Notes: generated by a model from the sequence alone, not told the origin. A DNA stretch of 64,000 bases from Promethearchaeota archaeon (GCA_019058365.1 JAHPZE010000007.1:1-64000), one strand, 5' to 3'. Counted from the stretch's first letter, positions 423 to 62,057 are shown. Program-made: numbers and translations.

Positions 423-1249
423 TTAGAGGCCTTTAGGGCCTTGCTTACATATTTCATAGGCTTCGTCTACAGAAGCATTCTCATGAACTATCGCTCGAAC
501 TGCTTTAATCATTCCAATAGGGCTGTCACTTTGAAAGATATTTCTTCCCATATTTACGTCTATAACTGTAAAAATCAGTTATAGTCTACGCCGACAGCTC
601 CTTTGTCAATTGCATCTTTTGACATCTGTAGTGCATCTCTTTCTTCGATCTTTTTTCCTCCTGCGATTACAATTGGTGCTGGACAAATACTTGTTACTTC
701 TTCAAAGTTCTCGCAATAATAGGTCTTTACAAAAGTAGCACCCATTTCTGCAGCCATTCTACTTGCCATCCCTAGATAACGTGCATCTCTTACCATTTCT
801 CTTCCAACGGCAGTGACAGCTAATGTAGGAATGCCATATTCTTGCCCCCAATTTACTAACTTTGAAAGGTTCATTAAAGTTTGCTTCTCATATTCTCCTC
901 CTACAAAAATTGAGCAAGTAATAGCTGATACATTCAATCTTATCGCATCATCAACAGTAACATTTATTTCTTCATTAGAGAGCTCTTTTAACATTGAAGC
1001 CCCCGCTGATACTCTTAAAACAATAGGTACATCAATTTCAGAAGGTACACAGTTTCTAAGCATCCCTCTTGTCAACATAAGAGCATCAGCATATTCAAAT
1101 AAGGGCTTCATATCAGTGAAACATTTTAATTGACTGGGAACGTTTCCAAAATATCCATGATCAATAGCTAACATAACGCACCGCCCACTCTTTGGTTTAA
1201 TTATTCTGTTAAAGCGGTTCTGAAAACCCCAATCACCCACTACAACCAT
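423..1249 (-). CDS. lsrF: LsrF-like class I aldolase/thiolase; spliced gene complement(join(423..553,586..1249)), 264 aa
   Basis: Motifs [29 protein letters not shown]. The ORF stops at ...GAVGVDYN*, but the conserved C-terminus [23 protein letters not shown] continues in another frame to TAA 425-423. Removing 554-585 gives GAVGVDMGRNIFQ. Confidence 0.9.
554..585 (-). other. 32-nt bulge-helix-bulge intron in lsrF mRNA
   Basis: Sense RNA: GCGU [AG^A] CUAUAACUG AUUUUUA CAGUUAUAG ACGU [AA^A] UAUGG. Central 4-bp helix GCGU/ACGU, two 3-nt bulges, perfect 9-bp intron stem; cutting at ^ restores frame and motif. Confidence 0.88.
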
Positions 1250-1367
1250 TTTTAAATCCCTTTTTAATAGTTTGAATATTAATTAAGATTATTTTTTTAA
1301 ATAAATTAATGATCTCTATTTTACTTTTTCTAAAAAACACATATAAGTAAAGTTTATACAAAAATAA

Positions 1368-2216
1368 TTAAATCACACTTAAGAATTCTCCAACTCTGTT
1401 CTTAATTTTTGAAACGAGTTTTCTTGAGATGTTTCGCCTTATAAACTCTTTAATCAAGTTAAAGTGATAATTACTAATTTTTTTTCTACCAAATTTTTTA
1501 GAAATTCTAACTATTAACTCATCTTCATAAATTTGATCAATTTCTTCTAATATTGAAACAGTATAATGCACTTCATTTATCAGTTTAGATATATCTTGCT
1601 GAAGGAGTTTTAGTTGTTGTTCTTCATCAATAATGTCTAAGGCTCTTTTAATGATCTGTTCCTCGAATTTTAACTTGATTGTCCACGGAGTCTGAAATAT
1701 ATGTTGAGATGTATCCAATATTAAAGCATCTCTATCCTTAATTTTAATTTTATTAATATCAGGGTTTTCAATTATATGGATTGTTTTACTTTCCCTATAT
1801 GTCTCTGGTAATATATTATCCCCAACTGAATTCAATAAAGCTTCATCATATTGGAAATTTTCATCTTTTATAACATAAGAGGGATAATTAAATATTTTTC
1901 CATGTATAAGACTGAAAATTCCATAGATTCCAAAAATTTGTATTAAGTTCCTAAGATTTACCCTTCCAGCAGCTTCCCTATCAACTTCAGGAGAAATCGC
2001 ACCCATCAGAATATCTATTTTCTCATACCCTCTTATAATTCCTTTTGTATCTACAAAAACGATAAATTGGTGTTCAGGACATACAGCATTAATTGGTATT
2101 TGAATTTTAACAGTACCAAATTTTTTTTGAGAGAAAATCGCCTCAGGAACATTAATTGATTTCGCTTTCCCACATGTAGGGCATACGACTTCTAGAACCT
2201 TAAATGATTCAGGCAT
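1368..2216 (-). CDS. Hypothetical protein with N-terminal Zn-binding motif (CPTC...CPEH)
   Basis: 282-aa ORF with Cys/His knuckles. Confidence 0.7.
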   Translation of the reverse strand: MPESFKVLEVVCPTCGKAKSINVPEAIFSQKKFGTVKIQIPINAVCPEHQFIVFVDTKGIIRGYEKIDILMGAISPEVDREAAGRVNLRNLIQIFGIYGIFSLIHGKIFNYPSYVIKDENFQYDEALLNSVGDNILPETYRESKTIHIIENPDINKIKIKDRDALILDTSQHIFQTPWTIKLKFEEQIIKRALDIIDEEQQLKLLQQDISKLINEVHYTVSILEEIDQIYEDELIVRISKKFGRKKISNYHFNLIKEFIRRNISRKLVSKIKNRVGEFLSVI

Positions 2217-2345
2217 ATTAGAATCTGAAAAATTAATATTTCAACTAATAATAAATAGATAAACTCTAAATAAAAAATTTAAGGAAATTCCCGCAATTCA
2301 AAAATCACGGTTTAAAATTAAAATCTTGTAAATTTAATAATAAAT

Positions 2346-3059
2346 TTATTTATTAAGGAGCTTGAGAAATTTCTTCTTCCAAATCTGATACTCCATCACA
2401 TAGTTGAAGCCGCAAACAATATCAAATTCTCTTTTTTCAATTAAATTTTTTAACCTTTTTGCTCCTTCCATGGTTGATTGTAATGGACCGTAAGGATTTA
2501 AAATAAAAATCTGATCTAATGGGATTAAATAATCACAGATGAAAATTACATTTTCAAAAATATAAAAAGTGAATCCTTGAGTGTGTCCATTGATATGAAA
2601 AGCTTCTATTCCAGATAAATTAAAATCTTTCGTAAATTTTTTATCAAAAGGATTCAATTTAGAAAGTGAATGTTCAGAATCATTTTTATGAATCCATATA
2701 AAAGCAGTATAATATCCTCTATAAAGGTTTGATGCTCCAAGAAAATGTTGGTGCGTGAATAATATTTTATCCATCGGTTCTAACTCTTTAGAGAAGGTAG
2801 AAGGGCAATCAATCCAGACTCTCTTATTATCTATTTCAATACTATAAGCAGAATGTTCAAGTCCTAAAGATGGATATGAATTTAAGCGGACTACTTTATC
2901 GTTAACTCTTGAGCTCACAATTTTATGCATTTGTGAACACTCTTCTGCAGTTATAAAGTTTTCATTAGAGGCGCCACAGAAAGGACAAAATTGAAAATAG
3001 TGCCCTATCATATTATAACCACATTTTTTACATACATATTGTCTTTGAAAGTCTGTCAT
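2346..3059 (-). CDS. Rubredoxin-like/Zn-ribbon + metallo-beta-lactamase-fold protein
   Basis: CKKC...CPFC; THQHFLG, GHTQG and ICD motifs. Confidence 0.7.
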   Translation of the reverse strand: MTDFQRQYVCKKCGYNMIGHYFQFCPFCGASNENFITAEECSQMHKIVSSRVNDKVVRLNSYPSLGLEHSAYSIEIDNKRVWIDCPSTFSKELEPMDKILFTHQHFLGASNLYRGYYTAFIWIHKNDSEHSLSKLNPFDKKFTKDFNLSGIEAFHINGHTQGFTFYIFENVIFICDYLIPLDQIFILNPYGPLQSTMEGAKRLKNLIEKREFDIVCGFNYVMEYQIWKKKFLKLLNK

Positions 3060-3164
3060 TTCACTTGATTAGTCTGAGATTATCTAAATATTAATAAAAC
3101 TTCATTCGGATTATTTCTTATTGCATATATTAAAATTTTTTTTATATATTAAATTGGTAAAATC

Positions 3165-4451
3165 ATGAATATTAACGTTTCTGAAGAAGATTCGAAATAC
3201 ATGTATGACTTTGTGCAAAGCATTATTGACGAAATTGGACCAAGAATGTCATGTAGTTCAAAAGAAGCAGAAGCTGCAGAATTTATCAAGAATGAGCTTG
3301 AAAAATCCTGTGATGAAGTCTCAGTGGAGCGCTTTGCATGCCATCCAAAAGCATTTTTAGGTTGGATTAAACTGGACATGTTTATGATTGTAATTTCGAT
3401 TCTCCTTTACTTTTTAAGCCAAATATTTACAGAACAATTCTGGTTATTACTTATAGCTATAATATCTTTTCTTTTTGTATTATTACCATTTTTAATTATG
3501 TGGGAAGAATTCTTCAATTACAGAGAGTTTATTGACTCATTGTTTCGTAAAAAAACCTCACAAAATGTAATTGGTAAATTTAAATCAGAGGGAGAGCTAA
3601 AAAAAATTATCATTTTTTCAAGCCATATGGATACCGCTGTTGAATTTAAATTGATGAAACTTTTGGGTTGGAGATTTATACCAATAGCATTTGGAGTAAT
3701 TTTTCTCATGCTAATGTGGTTGGTTCTTTCATTCTTAAATTTAGCCTTTATATTGATTGGATTCATTAGCCTGAAAGCTATTTTTCTGAATATTATGATT
3801 TGGGCTCTTATCATTGGAAGTCCCTTTATTATCCTCTTATTCTTTTTTGTACCATTGGGAGAGAAGGGGAATGTGGTACCGGGTGCCACAGATAATTTAA
3901 GTAGTTGTTCAGTTATTCAAGGATTGGGACGATATCTAAAAAATAATAGAGATATTATCCCACCTAATATTGAGATAAGATTGATTAGCTTTGGGTGCGA
4001 AGAAGTTGGTTTGAGAGGATCATATCGCTATGTAGAAGTTCATCACAATGAACTAAAAAGAAATGAAACTCTTGTAGTAAATATGGATGGCCTTGAAAAA
4101 CCCGATTATATTTATATAGTAGAATTTGAGCCTACTACAAGGACTTGGCACTCTAAGGAAGTTATTCAAAAATTATCAAGAGCAGCAGAAATTGTAAATA
4201 TTGAAGCAAAACGAATAGGTTCAGGAAAATTAGAAAAAGCATTAGGACGCTTAACTGGAGGCTCTGATGCTGCTGCTTTCTCAAAAGCAGATATTAAGGC
4301 CGAATTTATAAATGCGGCTGATTGGAAAAACCGTTCTAGTTACTATCATCAATCTGGAGATACTATTGACAAAATTGAAAAAGGAACTTTGGAAAGTATA
4401 TTAAAAATATGTATAGCTTTTTTAACAAATGAATCAAAATCTCACGATTAA
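3165..4451 (+). CDS. Membrane-anchored M28 family peptidase
   Basis: SHMD, GATDN, CEEVGLRGS, GSDA, YYHQ motifs; inserted TM helices. Confidence 0.85.
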   Translation: MNINVSEEDSKYMYDFVQSIIDEIGPRMSCSSKEAEAAEFIKNELEKSCDEVSVERFACHPKAFLGWIKLDMFMIVISILLYFLSQIFTEQFWLLLIAIISFLFVLLPFLIMWEEFFNYREFIDSLFRKKTSQNVIGKFKSEGELKKIIIFSSHMDTAVEFKLMKLLGWRFIPIAFGVIFLMLMWLVLSFLNLAFILIGFISLKAIFLNIMIWALIIGSPFIILLFFFVPLGEKGNVVPGATDNLSSCSVIQGLGRYLKNNRDIIPPNIEIRLISFGCEEVGLRGSYRYVEVHHNELKRNETLVVNMDGLEKPDYIYIVEFEPTTRTWHSKEVIQKLSRAAEIVNIEAKRIGSGKLEKALGRLTGGSDAAAFSKADIKAEFINAADWKNRSSYYHQSGDTIDKIEKGTLESILKICIAFLTNESKSHD

Positions 4452-4525
4452 GTTTTTATAATTATATTTTATTTACTTTTTAATTTACTAACAAAATATA
4501 ATTCAAAGAAAAAGAAGGGATTTTT

Positions 4526-5842
4526 TTGCAGATTGAAATTTCAAAAGATGATTCGAAATATATGTATGATATCATCCAAAAGATAATTGATGAATGTGGT
4601 CCTCGAATGCCTTGTAGTCCACAAGAAGCTAAAGGTGCAGAATTTATAAAAAATGAACTTGAAGAGACTTGTGATGAGGTAACTATTGAACCTTTTACAT
4701 GTCATCCTAGAGCTGCTTTGGGGTGGATAAGAGTAGACTTAATATTGAGTTTGTTATCATTCAGCTTATTTCTTTTAATCCACTTGTTTATAGATTCATT
4801 TTGGGTATATATTTTATCAATTATATCGACTTTACTAATATTTATAGCAATATTGATCGCTTGGGAGGAGTTCTTTAGTTATAAAGAGTTTGTAGATCCA
4901 ATATTTAAGAAAAAAAATTCTCAAAATGTTATAGGTAAAATAAAACCTATTGGTGAAATTAAAAAAATCATTATTTTTTCTGGACATCATGATAGTGCTT
5001 TACAGTTTAATCTTCTAAGATATTTAAAGTATGGCTATGAATTAATTATTTTTTTAGGTCTTGGAATTCTATTTTTTTGGTTTTTCGCATCTATCATTTT
5101 TATAGTACTTTCCATATTCACCTTTTTATTAGATATTACATTGATATATCGATCTTTCTTTAATTTAGTTATTTGGCTATTAATTATTGGAGCTGTACCA
5201 CTTACAACGTTATTTTTCTTTGTAACTCCAGGCAAAAGAGCAAATAAGGTTCCTGGTGCAGTTGATAACTTAAGTGCAGTTGCAATTATATTAGGTGTCG
5301 GAAGATATCTGAAAAGCCATAAAGATATAATACCTAAAAACACTGAAATAAGAATAATATCATTTGGAAGTGAGGAAGCATTTTTAAGGGGGGCTTTCCG
5401 TTATGTGGAAGCGCACTTAGAAGAATTACAAAAATTTGATGCAGAATGTGTCAATTTGGATGCTATTCAAAGTACAAATTATCTCACATTCTCCGATAAA
5501 GAACCAACAACTAGAACTATTCATAGTGAAGAAGTTGTTCAAAAACTTATCAAATCGGCTGAATTAGTAGGTGTTAAAGCAAATATTGCTAGCTTGGGAG
5601 GAGGCAGTTTTCTTGAAAAAATAGCAGGCTTAATGGGGGGAGGTACTGATGCTACCGCTTTTTCAAAATCAAAAATAAAAGCTAGTACTATTACAGGTTT
5701 GAGTCTAATAAAGATGGTCCATTTTTACCATCAAGAAACAGACACTCCAGATAAAATTGAAAAAGGAGTCTTAGAAAATGCGTTAAAAATATGTATAGGA
5801 TATTTATTTTCCAGAACAACACAACAAAAGTTGATTAATTAA
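4526..5842 (+). CDS. Membrane-anchored M28 family peptidase (tandem paralog)
   Basis: GHHD, GAVDN, SEEAFLRGA, GTDA, FYHQ motifs; co-linear with the upstream gene; TTG start. Confidence 0.85.
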   Translation: MQIEISKDDSKYMYDIIQKIIDECGPRMPCSPQEAKGAEFIKNELEETCDEVTIEPFTCHPRAALGWIRVDLILSLLSFSLFLLIHLFIDSFWVYILSIISTLLIFIAILIAWEEFFSYKEFVDPIFKKKNSQNVIGKIKPIGEIKKIIIFSGHHDSALQFNLLRYLKYGYELIIFLGLGILFFWFFASIIFIVLSIFTFLLDITLIYRSFFNLVIWLLIIGAVPLTTLFFFVTPGKRANKVPGAVDNLSAVAIILGVGRYLKSHKDIIPKNTEIRIISFGSEEAFLRGAFRYVEAHLEELQKFDAECVNLDAIQSTNYLTFSDKEPTTRTIHSEEVVQKLIKSAELVGVKANIASLGGGSFLEKIAGLMGGGTDATAFSKSKIKASTITGLSLIKMVHFYHQETDTPDKIEKGVLENALKICIGYLFSRTTQQKLIN

Positions 5843-5859
5843 AATAGATGTAATTAAAA

Positions 5860-9224: not shown

Positions 9225-9610
9225 TCATTTAAATTGATTCTTTAAAATAAATTTTTTTAAAAAAGACTATATATTTCCTTATATATTTACATATAATATT
9301 ATATTTAAATATTATGAATAAGCATATAATTAGTGCCTTCGATGAAATGAACTTATTTTCATAATATATATAGATATATATCAATATCACATTTAATGTA
9401 ATATTATCGCTTGAAATAATTTTTTACATCTGTTTTATTACGTGGAGGATTTCCTATTAAGATAAATTTTAATGTCCTTTATTTAAACGAATTGGCCAAA
9501 ATACTATTGAAATTTTCGAAATTTTTCTATTTTCTTTTAATTTTTCTATTATTAATAGCTAAACACTCAATTAACGCCATTGCCAATAAACATTAAAATA
9601 ATTTGTATGA

Positions 9611-13205: not shown

Positions 13206-13218
13206 TAACTGGATAAGA

Positions 13219-14824: not shown

Positions 14825-16249
14825 TTATAAATTTTTAAGTGCAATTTTTTCTAATTCCCTAATTAAATGTTCATCAATAGGACATATGGAGGATGCATTT
14901 AATAGTTTAGATGCTTGTTCTTTAGCCCTTTTTCTAACAGATTTAGAACCATTCTGTTTCCAAGCATCACGCGTCATTCTATCTATTATTGGACTTGGAA
15001 AGAATAATTCTTTTCTAAAATATTTCAGGGTTGATGGATGGGATAAAAGTTCTTCTTTATCTTCATAATCTTTTAGAATTTCTGAAGCAAAAGGAGATCC
15101 ATGATCTTCAATACCTTGAATTAATCTTTTTACCATCCCTACTATTTCATTATCAATAATTAATTTCTCAATACTTTGGGTTGATTCAAAATCAAGCATT
15201 CCAGGACCAGAAACCATATTTATCCCTGCTAATCCTGCTAATAGAGCTCCCATGCCGGCTTCAAAACCCGCTTGACCATCGGGTACTTTAGAATCGCTAA
15301 GTGACATATATGCATGAGTGGGCAAATTTAAGAGTTTTCCCATTTCAACATCACCAAGATTTATCATCATCGTTTCTATTGCACCCATTGGTGTCGTTCC
15401 TTGTTTCATATCAAAAACAGCAGGAGAACCACCCCAGATTAAAGGAGCTCCTTGTTTGGTTAACTGAACTATTACAGTCCCAGCAAGGCATTCCGCACAG
15501 TGTTGAGTAATCGATCCAATCAAGGTGATTGGAGCACTAGCTCCCGCTAATGGCATTGAAACAAATTCAGAGGGGATCATACTTTTTGCAGCATCAATTA
15601 ATGATTGTGTAGTTAGATCTGACCATTTAAGAGGTGGACTTGGACATGCATCAAATATAGCCAGTGGTTTTCTCGCTAAATCATCTTCCGATTGCCTACA
15701 TGTTAATAGGATCTCTCGCATGATCGAGAAGCTTTCTTTGCGAAATGTTCCAGTAATAACGGGTTTATAGCAATTAGACAACGCGAGATCTAATCTATGC
15801 CAATCTTGAGCGTCTTTTGGTACATCATTATAAATTAATGCTGTACTTTGAGCATCGATATATTTCAATTGTTCAACTACTTTTGAAAATCTTATGAAAT
15901 CTTTTGATATTGCTTCTCTAATATCCCCTGTTTCCTCATCAAGGATGAAAATTGCAGCAGACCCTGGATCAAAATTAACATTATCTTCCTTCAAAGTAAT
16001 ATATTCATTACCCTCTCGGTCGTAAAGGGTAATCTCACTTGGTGCAGTATCTAAACATTTATTAATTAAATCTGGTGGGATATAATAACGTGAACCTTCA
16101 TGATTTATACCATTTTGATTAAATAACTCAATTGCTTCCTGATTCTCAATAAAAACTCCTTGAGTTTCGAGAATCATTTTAGCTTCTTCCAAAATCTTTT
16201 GTTTATGTTCTTCATCTAATATTTTTATCTGTGGTCTTATAATTGGCAT
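14825..16249 (-). CDS. mttB: Trimethylamine methyltransferase family protein, non-pyrrolysine (MtgB-like)
   Basis: SPPLKW, GASAPITLIG, SDSKVPDGQAGFE, GPGMLDFE motifs; Leu at the Pyl-equivalent position; no in-frame TAG. Confidence 0.85.
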   Translation of the reverse strand: MPIIRPQIKILDEEHKQKILEEAKMILETQGVFIENQEAIELFNQNGINHEGSRYYIPPDLINKCLDTAPSEITLYDREGNEYITLKEDNVNFDPGSAAIFILDEETGDIREAISKDFIRFSKVVEQLKYIDAQSTALIYNDVPKDAQDWHRLDLALSNCYKPVITGTFRKESFSIMREILLTCRQSEDDLARKPLAIFDACPSPPLKWSDLTTQSLIDAAKSMIPSEFVSMPLAGASAPITLIGSITQHCAECLAGTVIVQLTKQGAPLIWGGSPAVFDMKQGTTPMGAIETMMINLGDVEMGKLLNLPTHAYMSLSDSKVPDGQAGFEAGMGALLAGLAGINMVSGPGMLDFESTQSIEKLIIDNEIVGMVKRLIQGIEDHGSPFASEILKDYEDKEELLSHPSTLKYFRKELFFPSPIIDRMTRDAWKQNGSKSVRKRAKEQASKLLNASSICPIDEHLIRELEKIALKNL

Positions 16250-32407: not shown

Positions 32408-33976
32408 ATGAAATTAAAAGTTAAAGAAATTAATTTTGAAACCGGAAATGCGAAAGATATTGTTTTAAATATTAAGGATGCTCAAGAATTAGGACAAAAA
32501 GCAGGAGAACGCGTTATAGTAAAAAATATTAGATCAAAATCTATTGAAGAAAAGTACTGGGTAGCAATAATACAAATAGATTTCCTAGGTTCTATTGTTG
32601 AACCTGGAGAAATTGGAGTATTTCTTAATCTTTTAAGAGAGAAAAAAGATTTAAAAAATGAAATGATTGTCTCTGTGAGACCAGCAGATCCACCCGACTC
32701 TTTTAGATTTATACAAAAAAAAATAAAAGGACAAAAACTTTCTAGCGAAGAAATAAATAATATTATATCTGATGCGGTTTCTGGATCCCTATCACGGATA
32801 GATCTAGCAGCATTCATAACAGGAGTATCTATTAATGGCATGGACAACGAAGAAATGACGGCTTTAACTCTATCGGAAACTAGGAGTGGAGAAATATTTT
32901 ATTTCGGAATGGATGTCTACGATAAACATAGCACAAAAATCTATATTTCGTAGGTTTTGTTAAAAGGTGGCGTCCCAGGGAATAAGGTATCTCTAATTAT
33001 CGTTCCGATTGTCGCTGCTGCCGGATTAACTATTCCAAAATCTTCAACAAGAGCCATAACATCCCCATCAGGTACAGCAGATTCAATGGAGGTCTTAGCT
33101 CCTATTGCATTTAATCCAGAAGAATTAAAAAGTATTGTATCTGAACAAAATGCATGTATAATCTGGGGTGGAGCTCTTGAAACTGCTCCAGCAGATAATA
33201 TTCTAATAGAAATTGAGCGTCCTTTACATATGGATCCCATAGGTCTTATGATACCGTCTATTCTAACAAAAAAGCTTTCATTAGGAGTTAAAAAGCTTGT
33301 TCTTGATATACCTGTAGGGGAAGGCACTAAATTTCCTACAATCGATAAAGGAAAACAGTTTGCTTATTTATTTAAAGAAATTGCTGCAAATGTTGGAATT
33401 GAAGCAGAATGTGCGCTCACCTTGGCTCATCAACCTATAGGTCATGCGGTCGGTCCTGCTTTAGAAGCTAAAGAAGCACTTACATTATTACGTGATTATT
33501 CTGCTGGACCAAACTCTTTAATAGAAAAGTCTACTGATTTAGCTGGTATTCTTCTTGAAATGAGCGGAAAGGCTCAAAAAGGTATGGGACAAAGCTTAGC
33601 GAAAGATATTTTACGCTCTGGTAAAGCTTATGAAAAAATGAAAAAAATTATCGAAGCTCAGAAGGGAGATCCAGAAATAAAACCCGAAGATATTAAGCTA
33701 GGACCATATATTAAAGAATTTTTTGCTTCTAAAGATGGATATATAGTTGATGTAAATAATTCAATAATAAATCGAATCGCAAAAACTACAGGTTGCCCCA
33801 ACTCGAAGAGTTCAGGTGTAGAGATAATTAAAAAACAAGGTGCAAAAATAAAAGAGGGAGAATTAGTATTTAGAGTCTATTCCCATAATGAATCTAAATT
33901 AAGAAAGGCAGAAAAAATTTATAATAGTACGGGAGGTCCAATTCGTCTAGGAGGAATGTTGATTGAAAGAGTATAA
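32408..33976 (+). CDS. deoA: AMP phosphorylase; spliced gene join(32408..32934,32965..33976), 512 aa
   Basis: Archaeal AMP phosphorylase N-domain, KSSTRAITSPSGTAD and QPIGHAVGPALEA motifs. DKHSTGGVPGNK is split by a 30-nt insert containing TAG. Confidence 0.92.
32935..32964 (+). other. 30-nt bulge-helix-bulge intron in AMP phosphorylase mRNA
   Basis: UAGC [AC^A] AAAAUCUAU AUUUC GUAGGUUUU GUUA [AA^A] GGUGG. Central helix UAGC/GUUA, two 3-nt bulges, 9-bp stem; splicing gives CAU AGC ACA GGU GGC = HSTGG. Confidence 0.9.
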
Positions 33977-43192: not shown

Positions 43193-44950
43193 TTATTGAG
43201 TCTCATATAATTCTAAAATCTCATTTACAGTCGTTATATCTTTTGGACCTTTTTCAGGACGTAACCTTAAAAAAACGGGAAACCTCATAGAATAGCCTAA
43301 TGTAGCAAATTTATCACTCATTGTAATCTCATCCCCTGTAATCTCCATTACTACCTCTGGTTTTAACCAAATGTCTGGCTTATCTTCACATATGACATTC
43401 TTTGGTTTTTTAATAGCCTTACATTGTTCCATATCTCTAGTTAAAGATTCAGATAACTCATCAGTTAATCCAGAAAAGAATCGAGTAAAAGCTATATAAT
43501 TATCATTCTCAGGGTCATAAACCGCACCAATATATGTTCCATACACTCCTGTTCTTCGACCCTTCCCATAAAAAGCACCAATTAACACCACATCAATAGT
43601 ATCTTTTAGTTTTCCTCCTTCCAAACTTTTTAACTTAAGCCATTTATAACCACGATTTCCTGCTTGATAAATTGAATCATCCTTAATTGATTTTGCCATA
43701 ATGCCTTCCGTTCCTTCCCCTCTAGCTTTTTTAAAGAATTCGAGTAATTCTTCAGTGGAATTTATTAATATTGATTCAACTAATCGTAATTCATCCCTTT
43801 CTTCAACTATTTTTTCAAGTTTTTTCCTTCGTTCTGGAAGAGGCTTATCAATGTATGATTTATCCCCAAATTTTAAGAGATCAAATACAAATAAACTTAC
43901 TGGAACTTCTTTAGCAATATTCTCAATATCATGCTTTCTCCTTCTTTGGCTTAAAACCTGAAAAGGAAGCATCTTTTCGTAAACTGGATCCATTGCAACA
44001 ACTTCTCCTTCGAGTATTACATTTTTAGTTTTTATATTTTCTCTGATAATTTGACAAACATCAGGATACTGATCCGATATATCTAAAAGACGTCGTGAAA
44101 AAAGTATCACATTATTGCCAAACTTATGAATTTGAAGTCTCTCTCCATCTAATTTGTATTCAGCTACGAAAGGAGAGCCTAATCTATTAATGAATTCGGT
44201 ATACATTTCTCGTGAAGCTAACATACTAAGAATAGGTGTTCCATATTTTATATCAATTTTTTTTACTTCTTCTAAATCTTTTTCTGCTAATAATTTGGCA
44301 ATTTCACCTAGATCGGGATATAAGGTATAAGCTCTTTCAATAAAATCTTTATTTTCCTTTTGACCTGTAAAAGCAAGAGCTAATCCCTCTATTATAGTTG
44401 GAGATTGAACACCGACTCTCAATGTTGATGTTATAATTCGCAATAAATATTTTGTTTCTAACGGAGAACATTTGCTCATTAGACCTCTTAATATCCCTAG
44501 TTTAGTATCTTGTGACCCAACTCCTTCAGATAATGCTATTTTTTTTAACTCAGAGTATAATTCCGAAATATTTAAAGAAATTTCTGAACTATAATTTTCC
44601 TTATTATAATCAAATAATGATTTTTGCTTCTTTTTTTTCGATAATATTAATTCTGCAGCTGCACCAATATCCCCTTTTTTTACTAACACTTCCTTGATTT
44701 TTTTAGTATCAACTCCAGAGTGTACAGATAATGCTTCGATTATCATTTTTTCAGCTAGTCCCATTTTTGGGAATTGTTTAATATTTGGGGTCAATTGACC
44801 TTGCAATAGATAAATAATTTTGTCTAAATCTTCAAAATCTTTTCTTTCTTTAATTTTTTTAAAGAACTCTGATAATAAGTCAATCATTTCAAGTCTTTTA
44901 GAAGTACTTTCAAGTTCTGAAAATAATTGAGATAACTTATTGAATTTCAT
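43193..44950 (-). CDS. lig: ATP-dependent DNA ligase
   Basis: EYKLDGER, LEGE, FDLL, EGIMAK, WLKLK, RFPVFLRLR motifs; likely start ATG 44950. Confidence 0.97.
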   Translation of the reverse strand: MKFNKLSQLFSELESTSKRLEMIDLLSEFFKKIKERKDFEDLDKIIYLLQGQLTPNIKQFPKMGLAEKMIIEALSVHSGVDTKKIKEVLVKKGDIGAAAELILSKKKKQKSLFDYNKENYSSEISLNISELYSELKKIALSEGVGSQDTKLGILRGLMSKCSPLETKYLLRIITSTLRVGVQSPTIIEGLALAFTGQKENKDFIERAYTLYPDLGEIAKLLAEKDLEEVKKIDIKYGTPILSMLASREMYTEFINRLGSPFVAEYKLDGERLQIHKFGNNVILFSRRLLDISDQYPDVCQIIRENIKTKNVILEGEVVAMDPVYEKMLPFQVLSQRRRKHDIENIAKEVPVSLFVFDLLKFGDKSYIDKPLPERRKKLEKIVEERDELRLVESILINSTEELLEFFKKARGEGTEGIMAKSIKDDSIYQAGNRGYKWLKLKSLEGGKLKDTIDVVLIGAFYGKGRRTGVYGTYIGAVYDPENDNYIAFTRFFSGLTDELSESLTRDMEQCKAIKKPKNVICEDKPDIWLKPEVVMEITGDEITMSDKFATLGYSMRFPVFLRLRPEKGPKDITTVNEILELYETQ

Positions 44951-51164: not shown

Positions 51165-51179
51165 ATTTAATGACTTCCA

Positions 51180-52142: not shown

Positions 52143-52152
52143 AAAAAAAAAA

Positions 52153-53481: not shown

Positions 53482-53580
53482 ATTCTTCTCACTCTAAATT
53501 ATTAAATATTCTAATGGAAATTAATGTTAATCAATACTAAAGTTTTATGCTTGAAAAAAAAAAGTAAAAAAAAAAATAGA

Positions 53581-54696
53581 TTAGATTTTTGCTTTCGCTT
53601 CAGCTTTCGCTGTTGCTTTAATAGTTGTATAGGAATTTTCCAGAACAGTTAAATATTCAATTAACACTTGGCTTGCTTTTGATTTTTGGTCATATACCTT
53701 CTTAATGATGTTTAAAAGGTATTTAGGAAAAATCAGATCTAAATAAAAATCAGAAAGCAAAGCATAGTATTCATTATTCCTTTCGTCTTGGAACACTTGG
53801 ATCATTTGAGTATCCCACAGTAACTTTAATACATCATCAAGATCGTCAACACCTTTCTTTCTTAATTTCTCAAGATCATTTTTCGTTACAATAGCAGTTC
53901 TTAATAACCGTAGTGTTTCATAAACTTGAGGATTAATAAGAATGTCTATGATTCTAAGATTATCTCCCTCTGTTGGGCGGTAATTTTGGAAAAATTTCTT
54001 AACTTCTATTCTGTAATCATCTGAAAGTTGAGAAGGTAGACCACGGCTTGATGGATCACCCAGAATTTTTACAGGAGGAACTCTTAAGGCTACGACATCT
54101 TGTATTAAAAATATAAGTTCTGATGGCATACCCTTTACTGAAGTTTCTTTTACAATTTCTCGTTTGACTAGTTCTATTAATACACCTTCTAAATCTACGA
54201 AGCCTTGTTTATATTGATCTTTAAGCCATACCATCAATTCAGATTTGGAAACTACACCTTCATCTCTTAAACGATTGATGATTAGCCGTTTGATTTCATC
54301 TTGATATGTTATTGCAAGGCGTTGTTCATTATTGAGAGTGGGATAAACGGATAGTCTTCTAAAAAGATTGGGGATCATTTCTACATAAGTATCGTCTCTA
54401 ATATTTTGCAATATTATTCGAGAAATATCAATTAAGCCTCCCTCATAAGAATCTGGATCATCATCTAAACTTAAAAGCAAAAGAATGTAGAATCCTTTAT
54501 CAGGTCCAGTGTAATAAGAGGCAATATTTAAAGATCCAATCATTAAGCTAATCATTCCAGATTCGCCGCTATATTCATGAGTGCTGTAAACTTGCATCAA
54601 TGTTTTATCAGTTATATTAATTTCTTCAGGATATTTAGCTAAAATTTCAGTACCTACTCTTTCATCCCATCTCATTACTACTAATCCGACTGGCAT
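53581..54696 (-). CDS. Conserved hypothetical protein; longin/uDENN-like N-terminus plus winged-helix-like segments
   Basis: VVMRWDERVGTEILAKYPE resembles the uDENN beta1-beta2 pattern; TAATG overlap with the upstream gene. Confidence 0.6.
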   Translation of the reverse strand: MPVGLVVMRWDERVGTEILAKYPEEINITDKTLMQVYSTHEYSGESGMISLMIGSLNIASYYTGPDKGFYILLLLSLDDDPDSYEGGLIDISRIILQNIRDDTYVEMIPNLFRRLSVYPTLNNEQRLAITYQDEIKRLIINRLRDEGVVSKSELMVWLKDQYKQGFVDLEGVLIELVKREIVKETSVKGMPSELIFLIQDVVALRVPPVKILGDPSSRGLPSQLSDDYRIEVKKFFQNYRPTEGDNLRIIDILINPQVYETLRLLRTAIVTKNDLEKLRKKGVDDLDDVLKLLWDTQMIQVFQDERNNEYYALLSDFYLDLIFPKYLLNIIKKVYDQKSKASQVLIEYLTVLENSYTTIKATAKAEAKAKI

Positions 54697-57600
54697 TAAT
54701 CAGCACCTCCATTTGGTTCATCTAATTCTTCTTCTGGTTCGAAATGCTCTTCTTCTTTCTTTTCTTCTGGTTCGAAATGCTCTTCTTCTTTCACTTTACG
54801 TAATTTCTTCGGCTTTTCTTCTTTCATTTCGGGTAATTTCTTTTTCTTACCTTTTAATCCCATGGAATCTCTTAAAGATAATCCAATATTTTCCCACTTA
54901 TCTCCGAGCATCTTTACTATGTATTCTTCTTTTGTTGGGTATAATAATGACTCTGAAATTATTTTGTTTCCTTTGATGTCTTTTTTCATGCTTTTCGCTT
55001 TTTTGACAAATGTGGGGATTCTGCGTTGTTGAATTACTCTATATGAAACAAGACTACCTGCTACAGCCGCAATCGCGCCCACTATTATTAAGAAATAAAA
55101 AGTAGGTACTCCAGGAAAAATTTCTGCTATTGACACCACAACAGTAAAATCATGAGTTTCAGAAGTAAAATTCGCTTTTTCAATAGTAAGTGTAGCTATA
55201 AAGGTTTCAGGCATAAAAAACGGTTCAGCTATTGGAAATGTATTAACTGAATAAGTACCGTCACCATTATCAATAATGAAATTACTATCGGTAGTATAAA
55301 CAATGCCTCTTATAGTGAGCGTTAAATATGCTCCAATAACTGGAACCGAGCTATTATTAGGATCAGTGAGTGTTATTAGAAATTGTACAGTTCCTCCGGA
55401 AGCTAAATGAATTATAGTACCCACAGAAAACAGCTGATCAAACTCCCTTTTATTAATAGTTAGAGAGATTATTGCTACTCTAAAATCATAATTATCCTTA
55501 TTTAATGTAACTACAATGGAATATTCTCCTGCTTGAAGGGTTTCTGTGTTGAGATCTAAAATATATTGATGCCCAGCAGTTTCGTGTAAGAATCCAGTAA
55601 TTGCACTACCTAGAATTGGATTTCCATTCGCATCAAGTTTGACCATTATAAAACTCTTCTCATCAGCATTCTCTATAATCTTGGAAGTTAGAAAGTCAGT
55701 AAACTGGAATGTGAAGTTGAGAGGATCTAAGACATACAATTTTTGGCTTATATATAAAACATCTTCGTTTGAATTCAATGATGTTAACCGATTAATAATA
55801 TTTATAATGAGACTAGGACTTGGTACCCCATTACTAAAGTTTTGTTTCACTGCTAATATATTGATTGTATAAGTACCAATATCAGTTACATTACCCGTAT
55901 TAAAGAAAAATGAATAATATCCCGGACCTTTTATGACATCTGATTTTATTTGACCCGATCCAAAAGCCCAACTATATGAGACATCTGCATTCGTGATCGG
56001 AGCACTAGAAATCAATTCTGTAAAATAAAATGTTATTCCAAACGTTTCATTCCAATATTCTGTCAAGGTGTATGATGGAAATTCATTACCTGTGGTATAA
56101 TCATGAATAGTTAACGTTGTTAATACCAACTTTACTTTAAAGGGAATCTGAAGTGGACTTGGTGGTGTATATGGCGTCGGAGTAGTTTTACTAGCGTAGA
56201 TATAAATATGATACGACTCGCCTCCTATGAATGAAAATTGTGAAGTATTGAAAGTATAGCTGTAGACACCTTTAGAAGTATTAAAGCCAATCAAGTTAAT
56301 CGATGATCCCAAAGCGTGTAAAGATTCATCACGAAATTGGAGGTATATTGTAGTGGGATTTGCTAATACTGGAGTTTGGCTTTGATACTGAGTTGTAAAA
56401 TTAAAACTAATTGTAACATTGTCCCTCCAATAGATACCTGTTGTAAAATTTGAGGGATTTTGAGATATCAGCGTTAAATAAGTTTGGTAATCTGTAACAA
56501 TATATTCAACAATAAGAGAACTTTGTACAACCTGAGAAGTATAGTTTTCTTTGTCAAATGTTACTGTTATTGTATATGTCCCATCTGGTAAACTAGCTGT
56601 ATCAAAACCTATAAGATAATATACTTCGTTGAGTGAATCATATCCAAGAGATCCACTACCGGATGCTGTGCCATTGTAAGAATATGATTGCGTATCCAAA
56701 TTAGTAATGGATGTACTTGTTAAATCATCCATATAAAAATATGTTAAATTCAATATTTCTCCGATTTTAATAGTAAAAATTTCAGTACTATTAACAGATG
56801 TTGGGCGATCTTCAATTGTTAATGAAATTACAGCAGATCTTATTTCATAATTAATTTTATCTAAAGTTATAAATACAAAGTAATTTCCAAGTTGCATATT
56901 CTCTGTATTAAGGTCTAATATATATCTATGATCAACAGTTTCGTTCAATGAACCAACTTTATATGCTCCTGGTATAGGATTTCCAGATCCATCAAGTTTT
57001 TGCCAATTATAACTTGCTTCATCTGGATTTGAAATTCGAGTGGATGTTAAAACATCAGTATAATTAAATTCAAAATATTGTGTTTCTAAAGCATATACAC
57101 TTTCACTAAGAAAAATCATAGTCTTGGTACCATTCATTTCTGTTGGCCTTAAAAGGATAGTAAGATAAATACTAAAAGCATCAATTTTAGTATAATTTTC
57201 AAGAGCAGCAGAGATATCAATTCTATAAGTTCCTACAGTGGGGGTATCCGCAGTATTAAGTTCAAATGTATAATATCCGGGATTTATTGGATCTGGATTT
57301 ATAGGACCAGAACCATAGTCCCAATCATAAGCAACTCTATTAGTCGTAAGAGAACTCTTTGTGTTATTATCAAAATATTTAACAGTTATGTTGATGACTT
57401 CATTGTAGTACTGCGATATTTTATTCGTTGTTAACTCAATAAGCGTTGTATAATTATGAAAACTGATTCCAGTTGGTTTTGTGTTTATTGTAATAAGAGA
57501 GTATATTGGTGCTGGATCAATATACCCTAGTTTACTTCCTCTAATTTCAATCCAGTAATCTTCACCACTATCTCCCGCTGAGAATTCACTTGAATTAATA

Positions 57601-60308
57601 GTAGTTGTAAAAATTCCATCTCCAATCCCTTTACTCATGTCATAAGATTTAATCCCTCCTACACGAAGAAAAATTTCATCAGGATCATTTAATCCATTCC
57701 ACCCGACACCACCATTTGTTGTAATGGTATAATTAACACTAAAAGTCATATTTTCACCCCAAGTTACAACCGAATCTCCTGTAAAATCAATAAACATTGA
57801 ATCATAATCATCGATATCTATTTGAACTTTAAACACAAGTGTAGTATTAGATGTTAAAGAATAATTGTAGTGATCAACGAAACCAACAGGTTTCCATTTA
57901 TCTGACATATTTACTACAAAGTTTTTATCAACGCCATAAAAATTTACGATAAATGTATAATTTTCTGACGGATTTCTTAAATACCAGAATTCTGACTCAC
58001 TATTTATCTGTCCATGTGCATAACCATTACTATCAGTTAATAGGTTGGCAATTGTATATCCAGTAGAATTCTTTACTGTCACAATACAAGATTGGATAGG
58101 TACAATTGCAGGCTTTTGGTCAATAGTTCGGATTTCCAATTTAGCTAATGATGTTTTATTATATATATTGCATGCTTCGAGGGTGTCTACTTGAATTGTA
58201 CCATTACAAGGAGTTTGAGTTGTAATATTAAAACCTCGAACATCAATAAACAACCCATAAGCCTTAAAATTATCATCTTTTAGAGCATTGCTTTCTAAAG
58301 GTGGTGTTCTTATATTTATCTCAATAAAATCTTGTTGACCTCCATAATATGAATTATTGAAATAAATAAGATGATCTTCGCTAAATTGACCATCTTTATC
58401 TAAGTAATAGATTTTGACAGTATCAAGAAAATCTGTCATTTTTTCCAATGTAATATTAGCTTTAAGCAACAGTTTATTTCCAACTTCTGTACTTGATCCA
58501 TTTGTATAAATATACTCTTGAACGTGATATTCACTTCCAGTTAATATATTTGATTGATTTACCCATATTATATGGTTATAAAATTTTCCCTCAAGTATGT
58601 AATTATTTCTATATACATAACTTTCATTCAATGGAATTGGAATGTCATTGTAATCTCTATTATCATACCAAATTTTATAATAATATTGTGTATCATTTTT
58701 CCAACGAAAAGTCGCCTTTCCATCGTTGAGTCTTAGTGATTCTAACACTTCTCCTGACGGGGTTTCACTAACATTAACATATGCATAATTAACAGGATCT
58801 CCATCCCAATCTATAATGTCAAAATCTATTGTCCATAGATTTAATGTAATATCTTCACTTTGGGTAAGTCTTGTAAAATTATATATATCATTATTTACAG
58901 AGTTATTATAAACAACCATTTCTTTTCCAGAAGTACTTAACGTATAATTAACAGTGATATTGTAAGGTCCTGGTTCTAAATCGTTAAACATTACAGATCC
59001 ATTTAAACCTGTTGTTTTATAATTTAAAATGGTACCAGTAGTATAATTTCTTAAATAAACTACTGCATTTGGTACAATTCTTCCATCAACATCGTATGTA
59101 GTAATAGTAACATCTGAAAATTGAGATTCTTCCTCTTGTAACTCAGTTGTTATATCAGTATAATTGTATAAACCATCAATTTCATTAAGTGTAAGTGCAT
59201 AATCGTAAAATCTAATATCATCAATTTGTCCTGAAAAATATCCCCCAGTTTCAGTTGGACAACATTCTCTATAGGCTATACCTACACCACCAGAGTCTGC
59301 ATTAATAGTTCCAGTAGGATTTGTAGAATCTTTTAAATCTCCATCCACATACATTATTTTCGCTGCTAAAGACCTGTCATAAGTACCTATAAATAGATGC
59401 CAATTTTGAGGATCTGGTACACTATATTGGGAGCCATATCGCCAACCAGTATCATAAATGATAAAAGCCATATTTCTGGTATTATAACCAGAAGTTCCTA
59501 ATATATAAGCACTGTATTTACTTACTATTTGCCAAACACCCCCATAACCAGTAGTCAGATCTGATTTTACCCAGGCTGATACGGTTATCGCATTCGTTGG
59601 ATTTATATTTGGAAGATTAACACGCTCACCCTGACCTCCTTCCGGACCATCAAAATTAAGGCAATAATCTCCCATTTTTCCGGTTACCCAATCACTGGAT
59701 TCCATTAAATAGAGATCTCCATCGGCATAATTACCCATTGAATCTGAAACCTTAATCCCAGTACCTTCATCAAATCTGTACCATGCTAAACCGAAACGAT
59801 TATCTTTATTATAATAGTCTATATCATGCTCAACATCTTTATTGCCATAATAGAGGTATGTATCATATTCAGATTGACCTGATGAGCAATTCGTTTCGAA
59901 CCATATAGTAGCAAAATCCCCTTTAGGATAATCTTTTTGAACAAAATACTCTCTTAGAATCCCGTTTTCCACGATTCTTACATCTTTTAAGCTAGAATTC
60001 ATTTTTCCTTCATCAACAAATCCAGAATAATTAAATTCTATTGAAACAATATAATCAGTTAAATCTTCAGCTTTAGGATTGGTAATGTTTATTAATCTTC
60101 TATATAGAAAAGTTATGTTCCACCAAGGATCTTCACCTATTAATGCAGGGTTTATCTGTTGTGAATCTTTCGACTCAGCTGTTTTATCAAGTTCATTTTT
60201 GATATTAAAAATGTTAGCTAATTGACTGGTAGCTAATGGAAGGACTATAAAAACCGCTAATAGAAGAATTAAAATTTTAATTCTTTTTTCTTTAGTATAT
60301 GTTTGCAT
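54696..60308 (-). CDS. 1870-aa cell-surface glycoprotein: signal anchor, DUF2341, LamG, Ig-like repeats, TM helix, charged cytoplasmic tail
   Basis: WWNITFLYRRLINITN, WYRFDEG...GQIDDIRFYDYAL, internally duplicated Ig-like blocks, many NxS/T sequons, TM near the C-terminus. Confidence 0.85.
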   Translation of the reverse strand: MQTYTKEKRIKILILLLAVFIVLPLATSQLANIFNIKNELDKTAESKDSQQINPALIGEDPWWNITFLYRRLINITNPKAEDLTDYIVSIEFNYSGFVDEGKMNSSLKDVRIVENGILREYFVQKDYPKGDFATIWFETNCSSGQSEYDTYLYYGNKDVEHDIDYYNKDNRFGLAWYRFDEGTGIKVSDSMGNYADGDLYLMESSDWVTGKMGDYCLNFDGPEGGQGERVNLPNINPTNAITVSAWVKSDLTTGYGGVWQIVSKYSAYILGTSGYNTRNMAFIIYDTGWRYGSQYSVPDPQNWHLFIGTYDRSLAAKIMYVDGDLKDSTNPTGTINADSGGVGIAYRECCPTETGGYFSGQIDDIRFYDYALTLNEIDGLYNYTDITTELQEEESQFSDVTITTYDVDGRIVPNAVVYLRNYTTGTILNYKTTGLNGSVMFNDLEPGPYNITVNYTLSTSGKEMVVYNNSVNNDIYNFTRLTQSEDITLNLWTIDFDIIDWDGDPVNYAYVNVSETPSGEVLESLRLNDGKATFRWKNDTQYYYKIWYDNRDYNDIPIPLNESYVYRNNYILEGKFYNHIIWVNQSNILTGSEYHVQEYIYTNGSSTEVGNKLLLKANITLEKMTDFLDTVKIYYLDKDGQFSEDHLIYFNNSYYGGQQDFIEINIRTPPLESNALKDDNFKAYGLFIDVRGFNITTQTPCNGTIQVDTLEACNIYNKTSLAKLEIRTIDQKPAIVPIQSCIVTVKNSTGYTIANLLTDSNGYAHGQINSESEFWYLRNPSENYTFIVNFYGVDKNFVVNMSDKWKPVGFVDHYNYSLTSNTTLVFKVQIDIDDYDSMFIDFTGDSVVTWGENMTFSVNYTITTNGGVGWNGLNDPDEIFLRVGGIKSYDMSKGIGDGIFTTTINSSEFSAGDSGEDYWIEIRGSKLGYIDPAPIYSLITINTKPTGISFHNYTTLIELTTNKISQYYNEVINITVKYFDNNTKSSLTTNRVAYDWDYGSGPINPDPINPGYYTFELNTADTPTVGTYRIDISAALENYTKIDAFSIYLTILLRPTEMNGTKTMIFLSESVYALETQYFEFNYTDVLTSTRISNPDEASYNWQKLDGSGNPIPGAYKVGSLNETVDHRYILDLNTENMQLGNYFVFITLDKINYEIRSAVISLTIEDRPTSVNSTEIFTIKIGEILNLTYFYMDDLTSTSITNLDTQSYSYNGTASGSGSLGYDSLNEVYYLIGFDTASLPDGTYTITVTFDKENYTSQVVQSSLIVEYIVTDYQTYLTLISQNPSNFTTGIYWRDNVTISFNFTTQYQSQTPVLANPTTIYLQFRDESLHALGSSINLIGFNTSKGVYSYTFNTSQFSFIGGESYHIYIYASKTTPTPYTPPSPLQIPFKVKLVLTTLTIHDYTTGNEFPSYTLTEYWNETFGITFYFTELISSAPITNADVSYSWAFGSGQIKSDVIKGPGYYSFFFNTGNVTDIGTYTINILAVKQNFSNGVPSPSLIINIINRLTSLNSNEDVLYISQKLYVLDPLNFTFQFTDFLTSKIIENADEKSFIMVKLDANGNPILGSAITGFLHETAGHQYILDLNTETLQAGEYSIVVTLNKDNYDFRVAIISLTINKREFDQLFSVGTIIHLASGGTVQFLITLTDPNNSSVPVIGAYLTLTIRGIVYTTDSNFIIDNGDGTYSVNTFPIAEPFFMPETFIATLTIEKANFTSETHDFTVVVSIAEIFPGVPTFYFLIIVGAIAAVAGSLVSYRVIQQRRIPTFVKKAKSMKKDIKGNKIISESLLYPTKEEYIVKMLGDKWENIGLSLRDSMGLKGKKKKLPEMKEEKPKKLRKVKEEEHFEPEEKKEEEHFEPEEELDEPNGGAD
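54729..54792. repeat. 33-bp-period duplication encoding KEEEHFEPEE twice
   Basis: TTCTTCTGGTTCGAAATGCTCTTCTTCTTTC at 54729 and 54762. Confidence 0.85.
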
Positions 60309-60762
60309 TTTTAATTCCTTTTTTTATTTTTATTAAATAAATTTTAAAAAAATGTTTTAAAAAAAACAGATTTTTATCATTTAATATGTAAATTTTACTA
60401 TTTAACTTTTTATAAATAGAAAACTAGTTGAAAAATCTTTGACTCTTTTATAACAAAAAACTAATTAAAATCTATTTTATGTATATCTGAATTTTTTTTT
60501 ACCAATTTTAACTTATTTTGTTAGAAAAATTTATCTTAATTTCGGATAAAGAAATAAGTTTAAATCCTGCATTATAATCATTTTTGGAATAACCTAGAAT
60601 ATACATATTAAATTCAAACATTTATTTAATTCATCATTTTCAAAGTTAAAACAGTTAAAATAATTGTCCCTTTTATCCCTCATACTTATCAATTTCTAAA
60701 AGGTTAAATATTTAAATTTAGATTGAAGAATTAAAGAAAAATATGGAATTTAAATTGCTTTT

Positions 60763-61398
60763 TTATTCCTCCTTATTTAATAAAAGATAAATCTTCCTTT
60801 TCTTTTGGCTTTTTGGGTTATCTATTATGAAGTTTCCCTTAAAATCTGTATTATCTGCAATTATTTTGCCAATTTTTTCCATAATCTCTTGGTTTTTGGG
60901 ATAAAATTGAACTATTACTCGGGAATTGGGTTTTAAAATCTGAAAAAAGGATTTAAATAGATTCTTTAACAAATAAAGCATATAATTATCATGAATATCT
61001 CTATAAATCCATTGTAATGCCGAAATAGAAATAATTGCATCAAAGATGTTTGATTTAAAAGGGGGAAAACACATATCTGTAATAATTGGGTTTAAATCTT
61101 TAATATCATAATAATTTAGGAATTCAGATATAATATCAAGTGCTACAGTTCTATATCCTATTTCTCTTAAAAACATTGCAGCAAATCCTGGACCACAACC
61201 CGCATCTAAAATTAAAGCATCTTTTTTCTGAAGTTCTAATAATTCTAAAGCTCTAATAGCTATGTTTTCTTGAATTCTCATCATACTTTTAGAGGCTGCA
61301 TATTGATTTAAGATTTCACCCCTAAAATAATCTGAAACTTTAGTATAGATTTCTTCTGGCCTCTTCCTTTTAACATTGAAATAATATTTTTCGTTCAA
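60763..61398 (-). CDS. bud23: Bud23/WBSCR22-like SSU rRNA methyltransferase
   Basis: RPEE, IQ...RALELL, ILDAGCG, FDAIISISALQW, QFYPKN, DNPKSQKKRKIYLLL follow the order of the eukaryotic Bud23 motifs. Confidence 0.82.
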   Translation of the reverse strand: MNEKYYFNVKRKRPEEIYTKVSDYFRGEILNQYAASKSMMRIQENIAIRALELLELQKKDALILDAGCGPGFAAMFLREIGYRTVALDIISEFLNYYDIKDLNPIITDMCFPPFKSNIFDAIISISALQWIYRDIHDNYMLYLLKNLFKSFFQILKPNSRVIVQFYPKNQEIMEKIGKIIADNTDFKGNFIIDNPKSQKKRKIYLLLNKEE

Positions 61399-61553
61399 AT
61401 CTCATTAAACTTAAAGATTTTAATCAGATATTCAATATTGAAAAATTAACGTAAATTTTCAATAATAAATCAAAAATTTTATTAAATTTTAAATATTTAT
61501 AATTTCAATTAGATAATATTTTCTATATTATAATTAATATATTGTGATTTTCG

Positions 61554-61856
61554 GTGTCGGAAAAAGAAGAAAAACAAATAATAAGAAAAGCTACCCTGAA
61601 TCTTAGAAGAAAGTATGGAAGGACAAAACAAATTAATATTGTTGAGAGAGATGCATTTATCCCTAAAAACCTTGAGAAAGAAATAAAAGAATCAATCCTG
61701 AAAAGAAAAACAGTTTTAGCAACGGATATCGCATTAAGATATGATATAAGAGTATCAACGATAAAGTTATTGTTAAAACAATATGAAGAAGAAGGATTAA
61801 TAAGAGTACTAAACCCCTCCTTAAAATTAAAAATTTATGTGCCTTCATCGAAATAA
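61554..61856 (+). CDS. rps25e: Small-subunit ribosomal protein eS25
   Basis: 100-aa basic winged-helix protein, ...IRVSTIKLLLKQYEEEGLIR...KIY; GTG start. Confidence 0.8.
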   Translation: MSEKEEKQIIRKATLNLRRKYGRTKQINIVERDAFIPKNLEKEIKESILKRKTVLATDIALRYDIRVSTIKLLLKQYEEEGLIRVLNPSLKLKIYVPSSK

Positions 61857-61952
61857 GTTTCCCTAATTTTAAAGGGGGAAATAATTTTATTTATAAAAGG
61901 TTTTAAGCTATATAGAAAAACTTTTTTATTATTTTTTGATATAATAGATAAA

Positions 61953-62057
61953 GCAGCTGTAGCCTAGATGGTAAGACGCCGGCCTCGAGCGTTCTTAAAT
62001 ATGATCAAGAAAGCCGGTGCGCATAAGCGCTCGAGGGTTCGAATCCCTCCAGCTGCG
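61953..62057 (+). tRNA. tRNA-Ser(CGA) with 22-nt intron at 37/38 (61990-62011)
   Basis: Acceptor GCAGCTG/CAGCTGC, discriminator G, anticodon stem CCGGC/GCCGG, CT-CGA-G, long variable arm GCGC-ATAA-GCGC, T-arm GAGGG-TTCGAAT-CCCTC; no encoded CCA. Confidence 0.93.

Follow-up and report, generated by a model that had tools for sequence, protein, structure and literature searches.

Candidate bulge-helix-bulge introns in protein-coding genes of a Lokiarchaeon

Two interrupted genes and the fold of their inserts

The DNA considered here is a stretch of 64,000 nucleotides (nt) (GCA_019058365.1 JAHPZE010000007.1:1-64000), in the following referred to as the window, which belongs to the genome of a Lokiarchaeon, an Asgard archaeon (genome G000). 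In public databases the most similar proteins are labelled Lokiarchaeota or Promethearchaeota, in agreement with an Asgard origin. It carries an LsrF-like aldolase gene and an AMP phosphorylase gene, each broken by a short insert that we investigated as a candidate bulge-helix-bulge (BHB) intron of the respective mRNA (Table 1). An earlier note on this DNA had described both inserts as composed of a 4-bp helix, a 3-nt bulge, a 9-bp hairpin and an AAA bulge, and this architecture was confirmed to the base.

The first part of the aldolase gene scores 322.8 bits (cutoff: 297) against NF006081, the LsrF-like thiolase profile in NCBIfam, and covers profile positions 33-251 of 291. The insert that follows introduces a frameshift as well as an in-frame TGA, at which the unspliced reading frame starting at position 1249 ends, and the second part of the gene matches intact orthologues of 264 amino acids (aa) from M-G-R-N-I-F-Q on. 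In the proposed fold, the exon bases GCGT (591-588) pair with ACGT (559-556) in the 3' part of the insert, and the resulting 4-bp helix lies between the bulges AG^A on the 5' side and AA^A (the caret marks the predicted cut), with a 9-bp stem (584-576 with 568-560) and a 7-nt loop formed by the insert itself. This is exactly the minimum-energy structure (-12.2 kcal/mol, z = -4.0), and 0 of 200 shuffled sequences folded as well. The corresponding elements of the AMP phosphorylase insert are a helix of TAGC (32929-32932, exon) with GTTA (32959-32962, insert), the bulges AC^A and AA^A, and a 9-bp stem including two G-U pairs with a 5-nt loop.

In both genes the two 3-nt bulges are located on opposite strands with the 4-bp helix between them and the inner 9-bp helix is present, while the bases outside the 4-bp helix are unpaired. 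As an outer exon-exon helix is missing, both inserts are of the relaxed HBh' type, as opposed to the canonical hBHBh' motif; the BHB assignment made in the earlier note therefore holds for the two bulges and the 4-bp helix, not for the canonical form. The G-U pairs fit a structure of the sense-strand RNA and not of the DNA. We also considered that the introns form a repeat family, and rejected this, since each intron is single-copy in G000, with only chance 12-16-mer matches elsewhere.

In each bulge, the splicing endonuclease EndA cuts behind the second base. This rule agrees with the 37/38 geometry of the tRNA-Ser(CGA) gene located in the window, whose 22-nt intron (61990-62011) sits at the canonical position and, as the earlier note had stated, ends in AA^A. 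Each of the junction strings given in that note for the two protein genes is found a single time in the window, and in 0 of 100 shuffles.

The inserts in orthologous genes

For AMP phosphorylase, 40 related genomes were searched, and the site was readable in 23 orthologues of the genus, including the one of the window. In seven of these (seven species including the window's own) the same codon is interrupted by a 30-nt insert; in the remaining 16 the insert is absent, and the sequence is exactly that of the junction predicted for the spliced mRNA. Upon removal of the insert, all seven interrupted genes give an open reading frame (ORF) of 512 aa, which equals the length of the intron-less proteins, without further stops or shifts. 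The aldolase comparison included 20 genus orthologues as well as eight environmental or metagenome-assembled genome (MAG) contigs from NCBI, ENA, JGI and Logan. The insert is absent from all 20 orthologues fetched, each of which shows the predicted spliced junction, so that the expectation that the cutting rule restores both proteins was borne out by the intron-less members of both families. A protein search revealed many database aldolases that end a few residues past G-V-D, and in the eight contigs behind such proteins the site is occupied by an insert of about 30 nt, whose helix and bulges match those of the window. The second exon is intact in every insert-bearing contig of sufficient length.

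We then used the aligned inserts for a covariation analysis, with pairing partners slid by 1-3 columns as controls. All 13 proposed pairs are kept in the seven AMP phosphorylase sequences (100% of cells, slid controls 33-53%); four pairs, including pairs of the exon-intron helix, changed on both sides, and the 4-bp helix is paired in 7/7 sequences. In the orthologue of G019, for instance, CAGT replaces TAGC on the exon strand and GCTG replaces GTTA on the intron strand; the bulge bases are altered as well, with the rejoined codon still encoding Thr. For the aldolase (nine sequences, i.e. the window and the eight contigs), 97.4% of cells are paired (slid controls 33-44%), three pairs of the stem changed on both sides, and the 4-bp helix is paired in 9/9 sequences. 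The occurrence of diverged versions of the inserts in seven and nine independent assemblies, the window's own included in each case, from different projects also contradicts an assembly or sequencing artefact, and leaves this explanation, which the earlier note had named among possible refutations, with a negligible probability.

These structures also bear on translational bypassing, i.e. ribosomes hopping across the insert as in gene 60 of phage T4, where likewise a stop codon and a hairpin follow soon after the break. The take-off and landing codons required for such a hop are unmatched in both genes (GAC vs AAT before ATG in the aldolase, ACA vs AAA before GGT in AMP phosphorylase), and the conserved helix between exon and intron end with its two 3-nt bulges is not needed for it; we thus regard bypassing as highly improbable.

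Next, we estimated the selection acting on AMP phosphorylase from the ratio of nonsynonymous to synonymous substitution rates (dN/dS). We obtained dN/dS values of 0.060 and 0.069 for exons 1 and 2 of the insert-bearing genes, with dS above 1, compared with 0.059 and 0.052 for the intron-less genes. This purifying selection on both exons, together with the high divergence, indicates that the gene has been functional throughout while carrying the insert. A pseudogene origin, in which insertions have inactivated genes that are now decaying, would fit the fact that both genes are truncated if unspliced. For AMP phosphorylase this explanation is contradicted by such low dN/dS values on both exons over seven species and by the lack of further stops or shifts, and it is at odds with the intact second exons of the aldolase contigs and with inserts of the same kind in the essential single-copy genes for RNA polymerase A', aEF-1alpha and uL11 (see below), so that we consider it very unlikely, if slightly less so than bypassing.

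Since the relatives show that the host genes stay functional, their mRNAs are very likely to be cut and rejoined by the tRNA-splicing enzymes. We conclude, with a probability of roughly 0.88, that both inserts are relaxed HBh' introns located in coding sequence and spliced from the mRNA by these enzymes.

Further inserts and the splicing enzymes

The earlier note had anticipated many more introns genome-wide, and a census that ignores structure agrees with this. When all ORFs of the complete 2.27-Mb contig of the congener G023 were aligned to G000, we found 10 genes of G000 whose ORFs are broken by short inserts missing from G023, 12 inserts in all with lengths of 26-37 nt (Table 1). The number of inserts is a lower bound, since it stems from roughly half of the genes and leaves introns common to both genomes uncounted. 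In the reverse comparison, 2-4 inserts were specific to G023. Of the 12 inserts, 10 show a perfect 4-bp helix in the register required by EndA, compared with 4.5% of random positions, and the first base of exon 2 is A in 11 of the 12, with some insert boundaries set with the rule in mind, within the 1-2 bases left open by the orthologue alignment. Pfam matches continue across the breaks, as for Rpb1 domain 1 (positions 2-73, then 74-312) and BcrAD_BadFG (2-135, then 137-271). The aEF-1alpha site is also filled in the Lokiarchaeal MAG GCA_016839765.1 (L199, about 355-390), by another sequence with the same helix. The earlier note had pointed to placement in conserved motifs, which is real for both focal genes and recurs among the other introns, as these lie remarkably often within the most conserved catalytic or ligand-binding motifs, such as the P-loop of aEF-1alpha, the zinc site of RNA polymerase A', the JAMM motif and the B12-binding motif.

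Two further ways of counting were tried and rejected. A genome-wide count based on structure and ORF continuity yielded candidates in the correct frame that were no commoner than frame-shifted controls (e.g. 883 vs 803-899), as the signal is swamped by the junctions of ordinary genes, where the supposed intron contains a ribosome-binding site and ATG; among the candidates with an intron stem of at least 6 bp, those recognisably real were the two focal introns and that of RNA polymerase A'. Junctions common to G000 and G023 turned out to be conserved boundaries of ordinary genes. Apart from the inserts counted here, an 18-nt insert with two stops (G000:C51, about 43540-43565, minus strand) was observed relative to a 57%-identical G023 protein, and may represent a decaying paralogue and not an intron.

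Table 1 Features of the window and genes with ORF-breaking inserts in the census of G000.
Coordinates without prefix refer to the window; a slash within a motif marks the junction.
Feature	Coordinates	Strand	Remarks
Exon 1, LsrF-like DeoC/LacD-family class I aldolase	1249..586	-	221 codons and 1 base of Asp codon; PF01791
Insert, relaxed bulge-helix-bulge (HBh'), aldolase mRNA (candidate)	585..554	-	32 nt; 5' cut 586/585, 3' cut 554/553 (predicted)
Exon 2, aldolase	553..423	-	last 2 bases of Asp codon, 42 codons, stop 425-423
Exon 1, AMP phosphorylase	32408..32934	+	175 codons and 2 bases of Thr codon; TIGR03327 positions 1-165 of 500; PF02885
Insert, relaxed bulge-helix-bulge (HBh'), AMP phosphorylase mRNA (candidate)	32935..32964	+	30 nt, in frame, holds TAG
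Exon 2, AMP phosphorylase	32965..33976	+	last base of Thr codon, 336 codons, stop; TIGR03327 positions 167-500 of 500; PF00591, PF07831
tRNA-Ser(CGA) gene	61953..62057	+	Rfam RF00005, 45.4 bits
Census gene: LsrF-like aldolase			focal insert
Census gene: AMP phosphorylase			focal insert
Census gene: RNA polymerase A'			inside H-F-G-H/I-E-L zinc-site motif
Census gene: aEF-1alpha	G000:C52:30988-31019	+	32 nt, in G1 motif (P-loop) G-H-I-D-H-G/K-S-T
Census gene: uL11			three introns
Census gene: JAMM protease
Census gene: acyl-CoA dehydrogenase
Census gene: BcrAD/BadFG-type ATPase
Census gene: B12-binding protein			inside D/G-H-D
Census gene: small unnamed protein

The enzymatic basis that the earlier note had proposed, EndA together with the ligase RtcB, is encoded in G000, which contains two EndA-family genes (PF01974/TIGR00324) and one RtcB gene (PF01139). 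The 198-aa EndA aligns best to chain 3p1z_B of Aeropyrum pernix, with Tyr, His and Lys kept, and without gaps over A. pernix residues 13-186. The 206-aa EndA has Ser at the position of the catalytic His of M. jannaschii EndA. On the fused-enzyme profile NF006795 the 198-aa protein corresponds to the second half and the 206-aa protein to the first. As judged from these alignments, the pair has the (alpha-beta)2 layout, with a catalytic-type alpha subunit and a beta subunit without the His. In enzymes of this kind, cleavage of relaxed motifs is conferred by the L1 loop. An (alpha-beta)2 EndA with the L1 (Crenarchaea-specific) loop has been described for Asgard archaea, and relaxed motifs are cut by the (alpha-beta)2 and epsilon2 types of EndA (PMC5829648).

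The splicing enzyme of this Lokiarchaeon is already under a heavy load of tRNA introns. With the intron option, ARAGORN found 30 tRNA genes in G000, 19 of which bear an intron, compared with 11 tRNA genes without this option; the tRNA-Ser(CGA) gene of the window was missed by default and recovered only with it. Many further tRNA genes of G000, carrying non-canonical or multiple introns, probably remain undetected.

Two other genes of the window were observed in passing. An MttB-family methyltransferase gene (PF06253; 14825-16249, minus strand; 474 aa) is uninterrupted and has a PYLIS_3 (pyrrolysine insertion sequence) Rfam match at 15202-15300 (minus strand), where mttB genes for pyrrolysine (Pyl)-containing enzymes have UAG; without an in-frame stop, the ORF looks like a non-Pyl homologue. 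The other gene is an ORF of 1870 aa at 54696-60308 (minus strand), in which a Laminin_G_3 (concanavalin-like) domain was detected along with a weak, sub-threshold carboxypeptidase-regulatory-like match; it probably encodes a large surface protein.

Proposed splicing, precedents and distribution

According to the mechanism that we propose, four exon bases upstream of the 5' splice site would pair in the pre-mRNA with four bases close to the intron's 3' end, giving a 4-bp helix between two 3-nt bulges on which the 9-bp intron hairpin would be stacked. The two-subunit (alpha-beta)2 endonuclease would then cut past the second base of each bulge, and RtcB would join the exons and probably circularise the intron. 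Splicing would restore G-V-D/M-G-R-N in the aldolase and K-H-S-T/G-G in AMP phosphorylase. That the mRNAs really are cut and joined, and that the EndA and RtcB of this genome do so, is what we infer from the conserved structures and the encoded enzymes.

Several points weigh against this interpretation. No spliced read, circular intron or cDNA was obtained for any of these genes. When metagenome contigs were scanned for the AMP phosphorylase junction in its spliced form, there was a single match, which belongs to a different, intron-less DNA lineage and provides no RNA support, and in a protein search for full-length products identical to the window strain the best matches were 95% and 94% identical, this strain not being represented. 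The AMP phosphorylase fold is not significant alone (z = -1.5), and its lowest-energy register is off by one base, which would lead to a frame-shifting excision of 28 nt; this structure is supported by the covariation and the orthologues. With the outer helix missing, cleavage would require an enzyme of broad specificity, an activity that we assume on the basis of homology. The closest sampled relatives of the window genome (97-98% protein identity) lack the aldolase insert, which is a further argument in favour of a pseudogene, and a recent inactivating insertion in the aldolase of the window genome alone could escape the selection analysis. Finally, exon 2 of the aldolase opens with ATG and a TTG is located four codons upstream of exon 2 of AMP phosphorylase, so that sequence alone leaves room for separate translation of the halves of both genes.

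The latter points, together with the fact that the 42-aa ORF of the aldolase is called in three other assemblies, would fit split genes, whose halves are translated apart and assembled without RNA splicing, with the hairpin as an intercistronic element. Against such an arrangement, the breaks lie within phosphate-binding loops, constraint acts on the inserts at the level of an RNA helix, in which exon bases take part and compensatory changes have occurred, and insert loss is always exact to the base. Moreover, the same architecture cuts uL11 into pieces of about 20 bases, which are unable to work as separate proteins, and leaves first exons of 22 and 26 codons in the genes for aEF-1alpha and the B12-binding protein, which are unable to work alone. 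We therefore consider split genes to be improbable, although marginally less so than pseudogenes, and favour splicing of the mRNAs.

For this kind of splicing there are archaeal precedents. The cbf5 pre-mRNA intron was reportedly the subject of studies by Watanabe in 2002 and Yoshinari in 2006. In Crenarchaeota, cbf5 contains a short BHB-type intron in the coding region, which is found in Desulfurococcales and Sulfolobales (PMC2738675, Yokobori 2009), and it was the only coding-region example reported by 2020 (PMC7714728). The Lokiarchaeal inserts resemble it as short BHB-type introns within an ORF, in a lineage with hetero-oligomeric EndA, with lineage-specific presence and exact loss. In contrast to cbf5, a single gene for which splicing was shown by experiment, they are known from sequence and concern at least 10 unrelated genes in one Lokiarchaeon, including genes of core information processing. 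In the mRNA of Haloferax volcanii HVO_1309, which likewise is a substrate of the splicing endonuclease, as confirmed in vitro, the BHB intron is located in the 5' untranslated region (UTR) (PMC7714728), so that, unlike in the Lokiarchaeal genes, the reading frame is uninterrupted. Our literature search, which covered few subscription journals, returned one archaeal coding-region BHB intron (cbf5) and one in a 5' UTR, and no paper on the Lokiarchaeal kind in coding genes. Studies on the intron-rich tRNA genes of Asgard archaea treat tRNA genes only (PMC11291895; bioRxiv 10.64898/2026.10.13.758758). The tRNA introns of archaea, at canonical and non-canonical positions, share the motif geometry and the presumed enzymes with the inserts described here, and the tRNA-Ser of the window also has the same AA^A 3' bulge; what differs is that the Lokiarchaeal hosts are mRNAs. 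As the 4-bp helix is built from codons, synonymous sites are constrained.

A comparison can also be drawn with eukaryotes. In HAC1/XBP1 mRNA, IRE1 cuts at two 7-nt stem-loops, and RtcB joins the exons in animals. If spliced as proposed, the Lokiarchaeal mRNAs share with this case the spliceosome-independent removal of a short intron, on which the correct reading frame depends. In place of IRE1, however, we propose EndA acting at a bulge-helix-bulge. An evolutionary link to IRE1/RtcB splicing is conjecture, and the suggestions of the earlier note that splicing gates expression and that these introns relate to RtcB-dependent mRNA splicing in eukaryotes are both speculation.

We finally mapped presence and absence over the orthologues, as the earlier note had suggested, and found both inserts to be patchy, with absences exact to the predicted junction. 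In the gene trees, well-supported branches force at least two changes for the AMP phosphorylase intron and at least three for that of the aldolase, and the window aldolase belongs to a clade whose four other members are without the intron, which is present in more distant lineages. It is conceivable, if rather doubtful, that the BHB mini-introns of Lokiarchaeia represent a spreading population and not static relics, in which case spread could proceed by lateral intron transfer through recombination at conserved sequence, or by reverse splicing and subsequent recombination; the occupation of one codon in scattered lineages and the frequent placement in conserved motifs would fit this. The patchy pattern fits equally with an intron-rich ancestor whose introns were lost repeatedly and exactly.

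For annotation, the consequence is that intron-bearing genes currently appear as truncated or split ORFs, an example being the aldolase records of 216-235 aa, and several 411-aa EF-1alpha database records are probably gene calls of exon 2 only. If the mRNAs are spliced, the archaeal lineage nearest to eukaryotes has protein genes, some of them essential (RNA polymerase A', aEF-1alpha, uL11), that rely on enzymatic RNA splicing as a matter of routine, which would add a layer for possible control of expression and offer a tractable prokaryotic case for the invasion, persistence and departure of introns in coding sequence. Should lateral spread also hold true, routine splicing of essential mRNAs would be characteristic of this lineage, the closest to eukaryotes among archaea.

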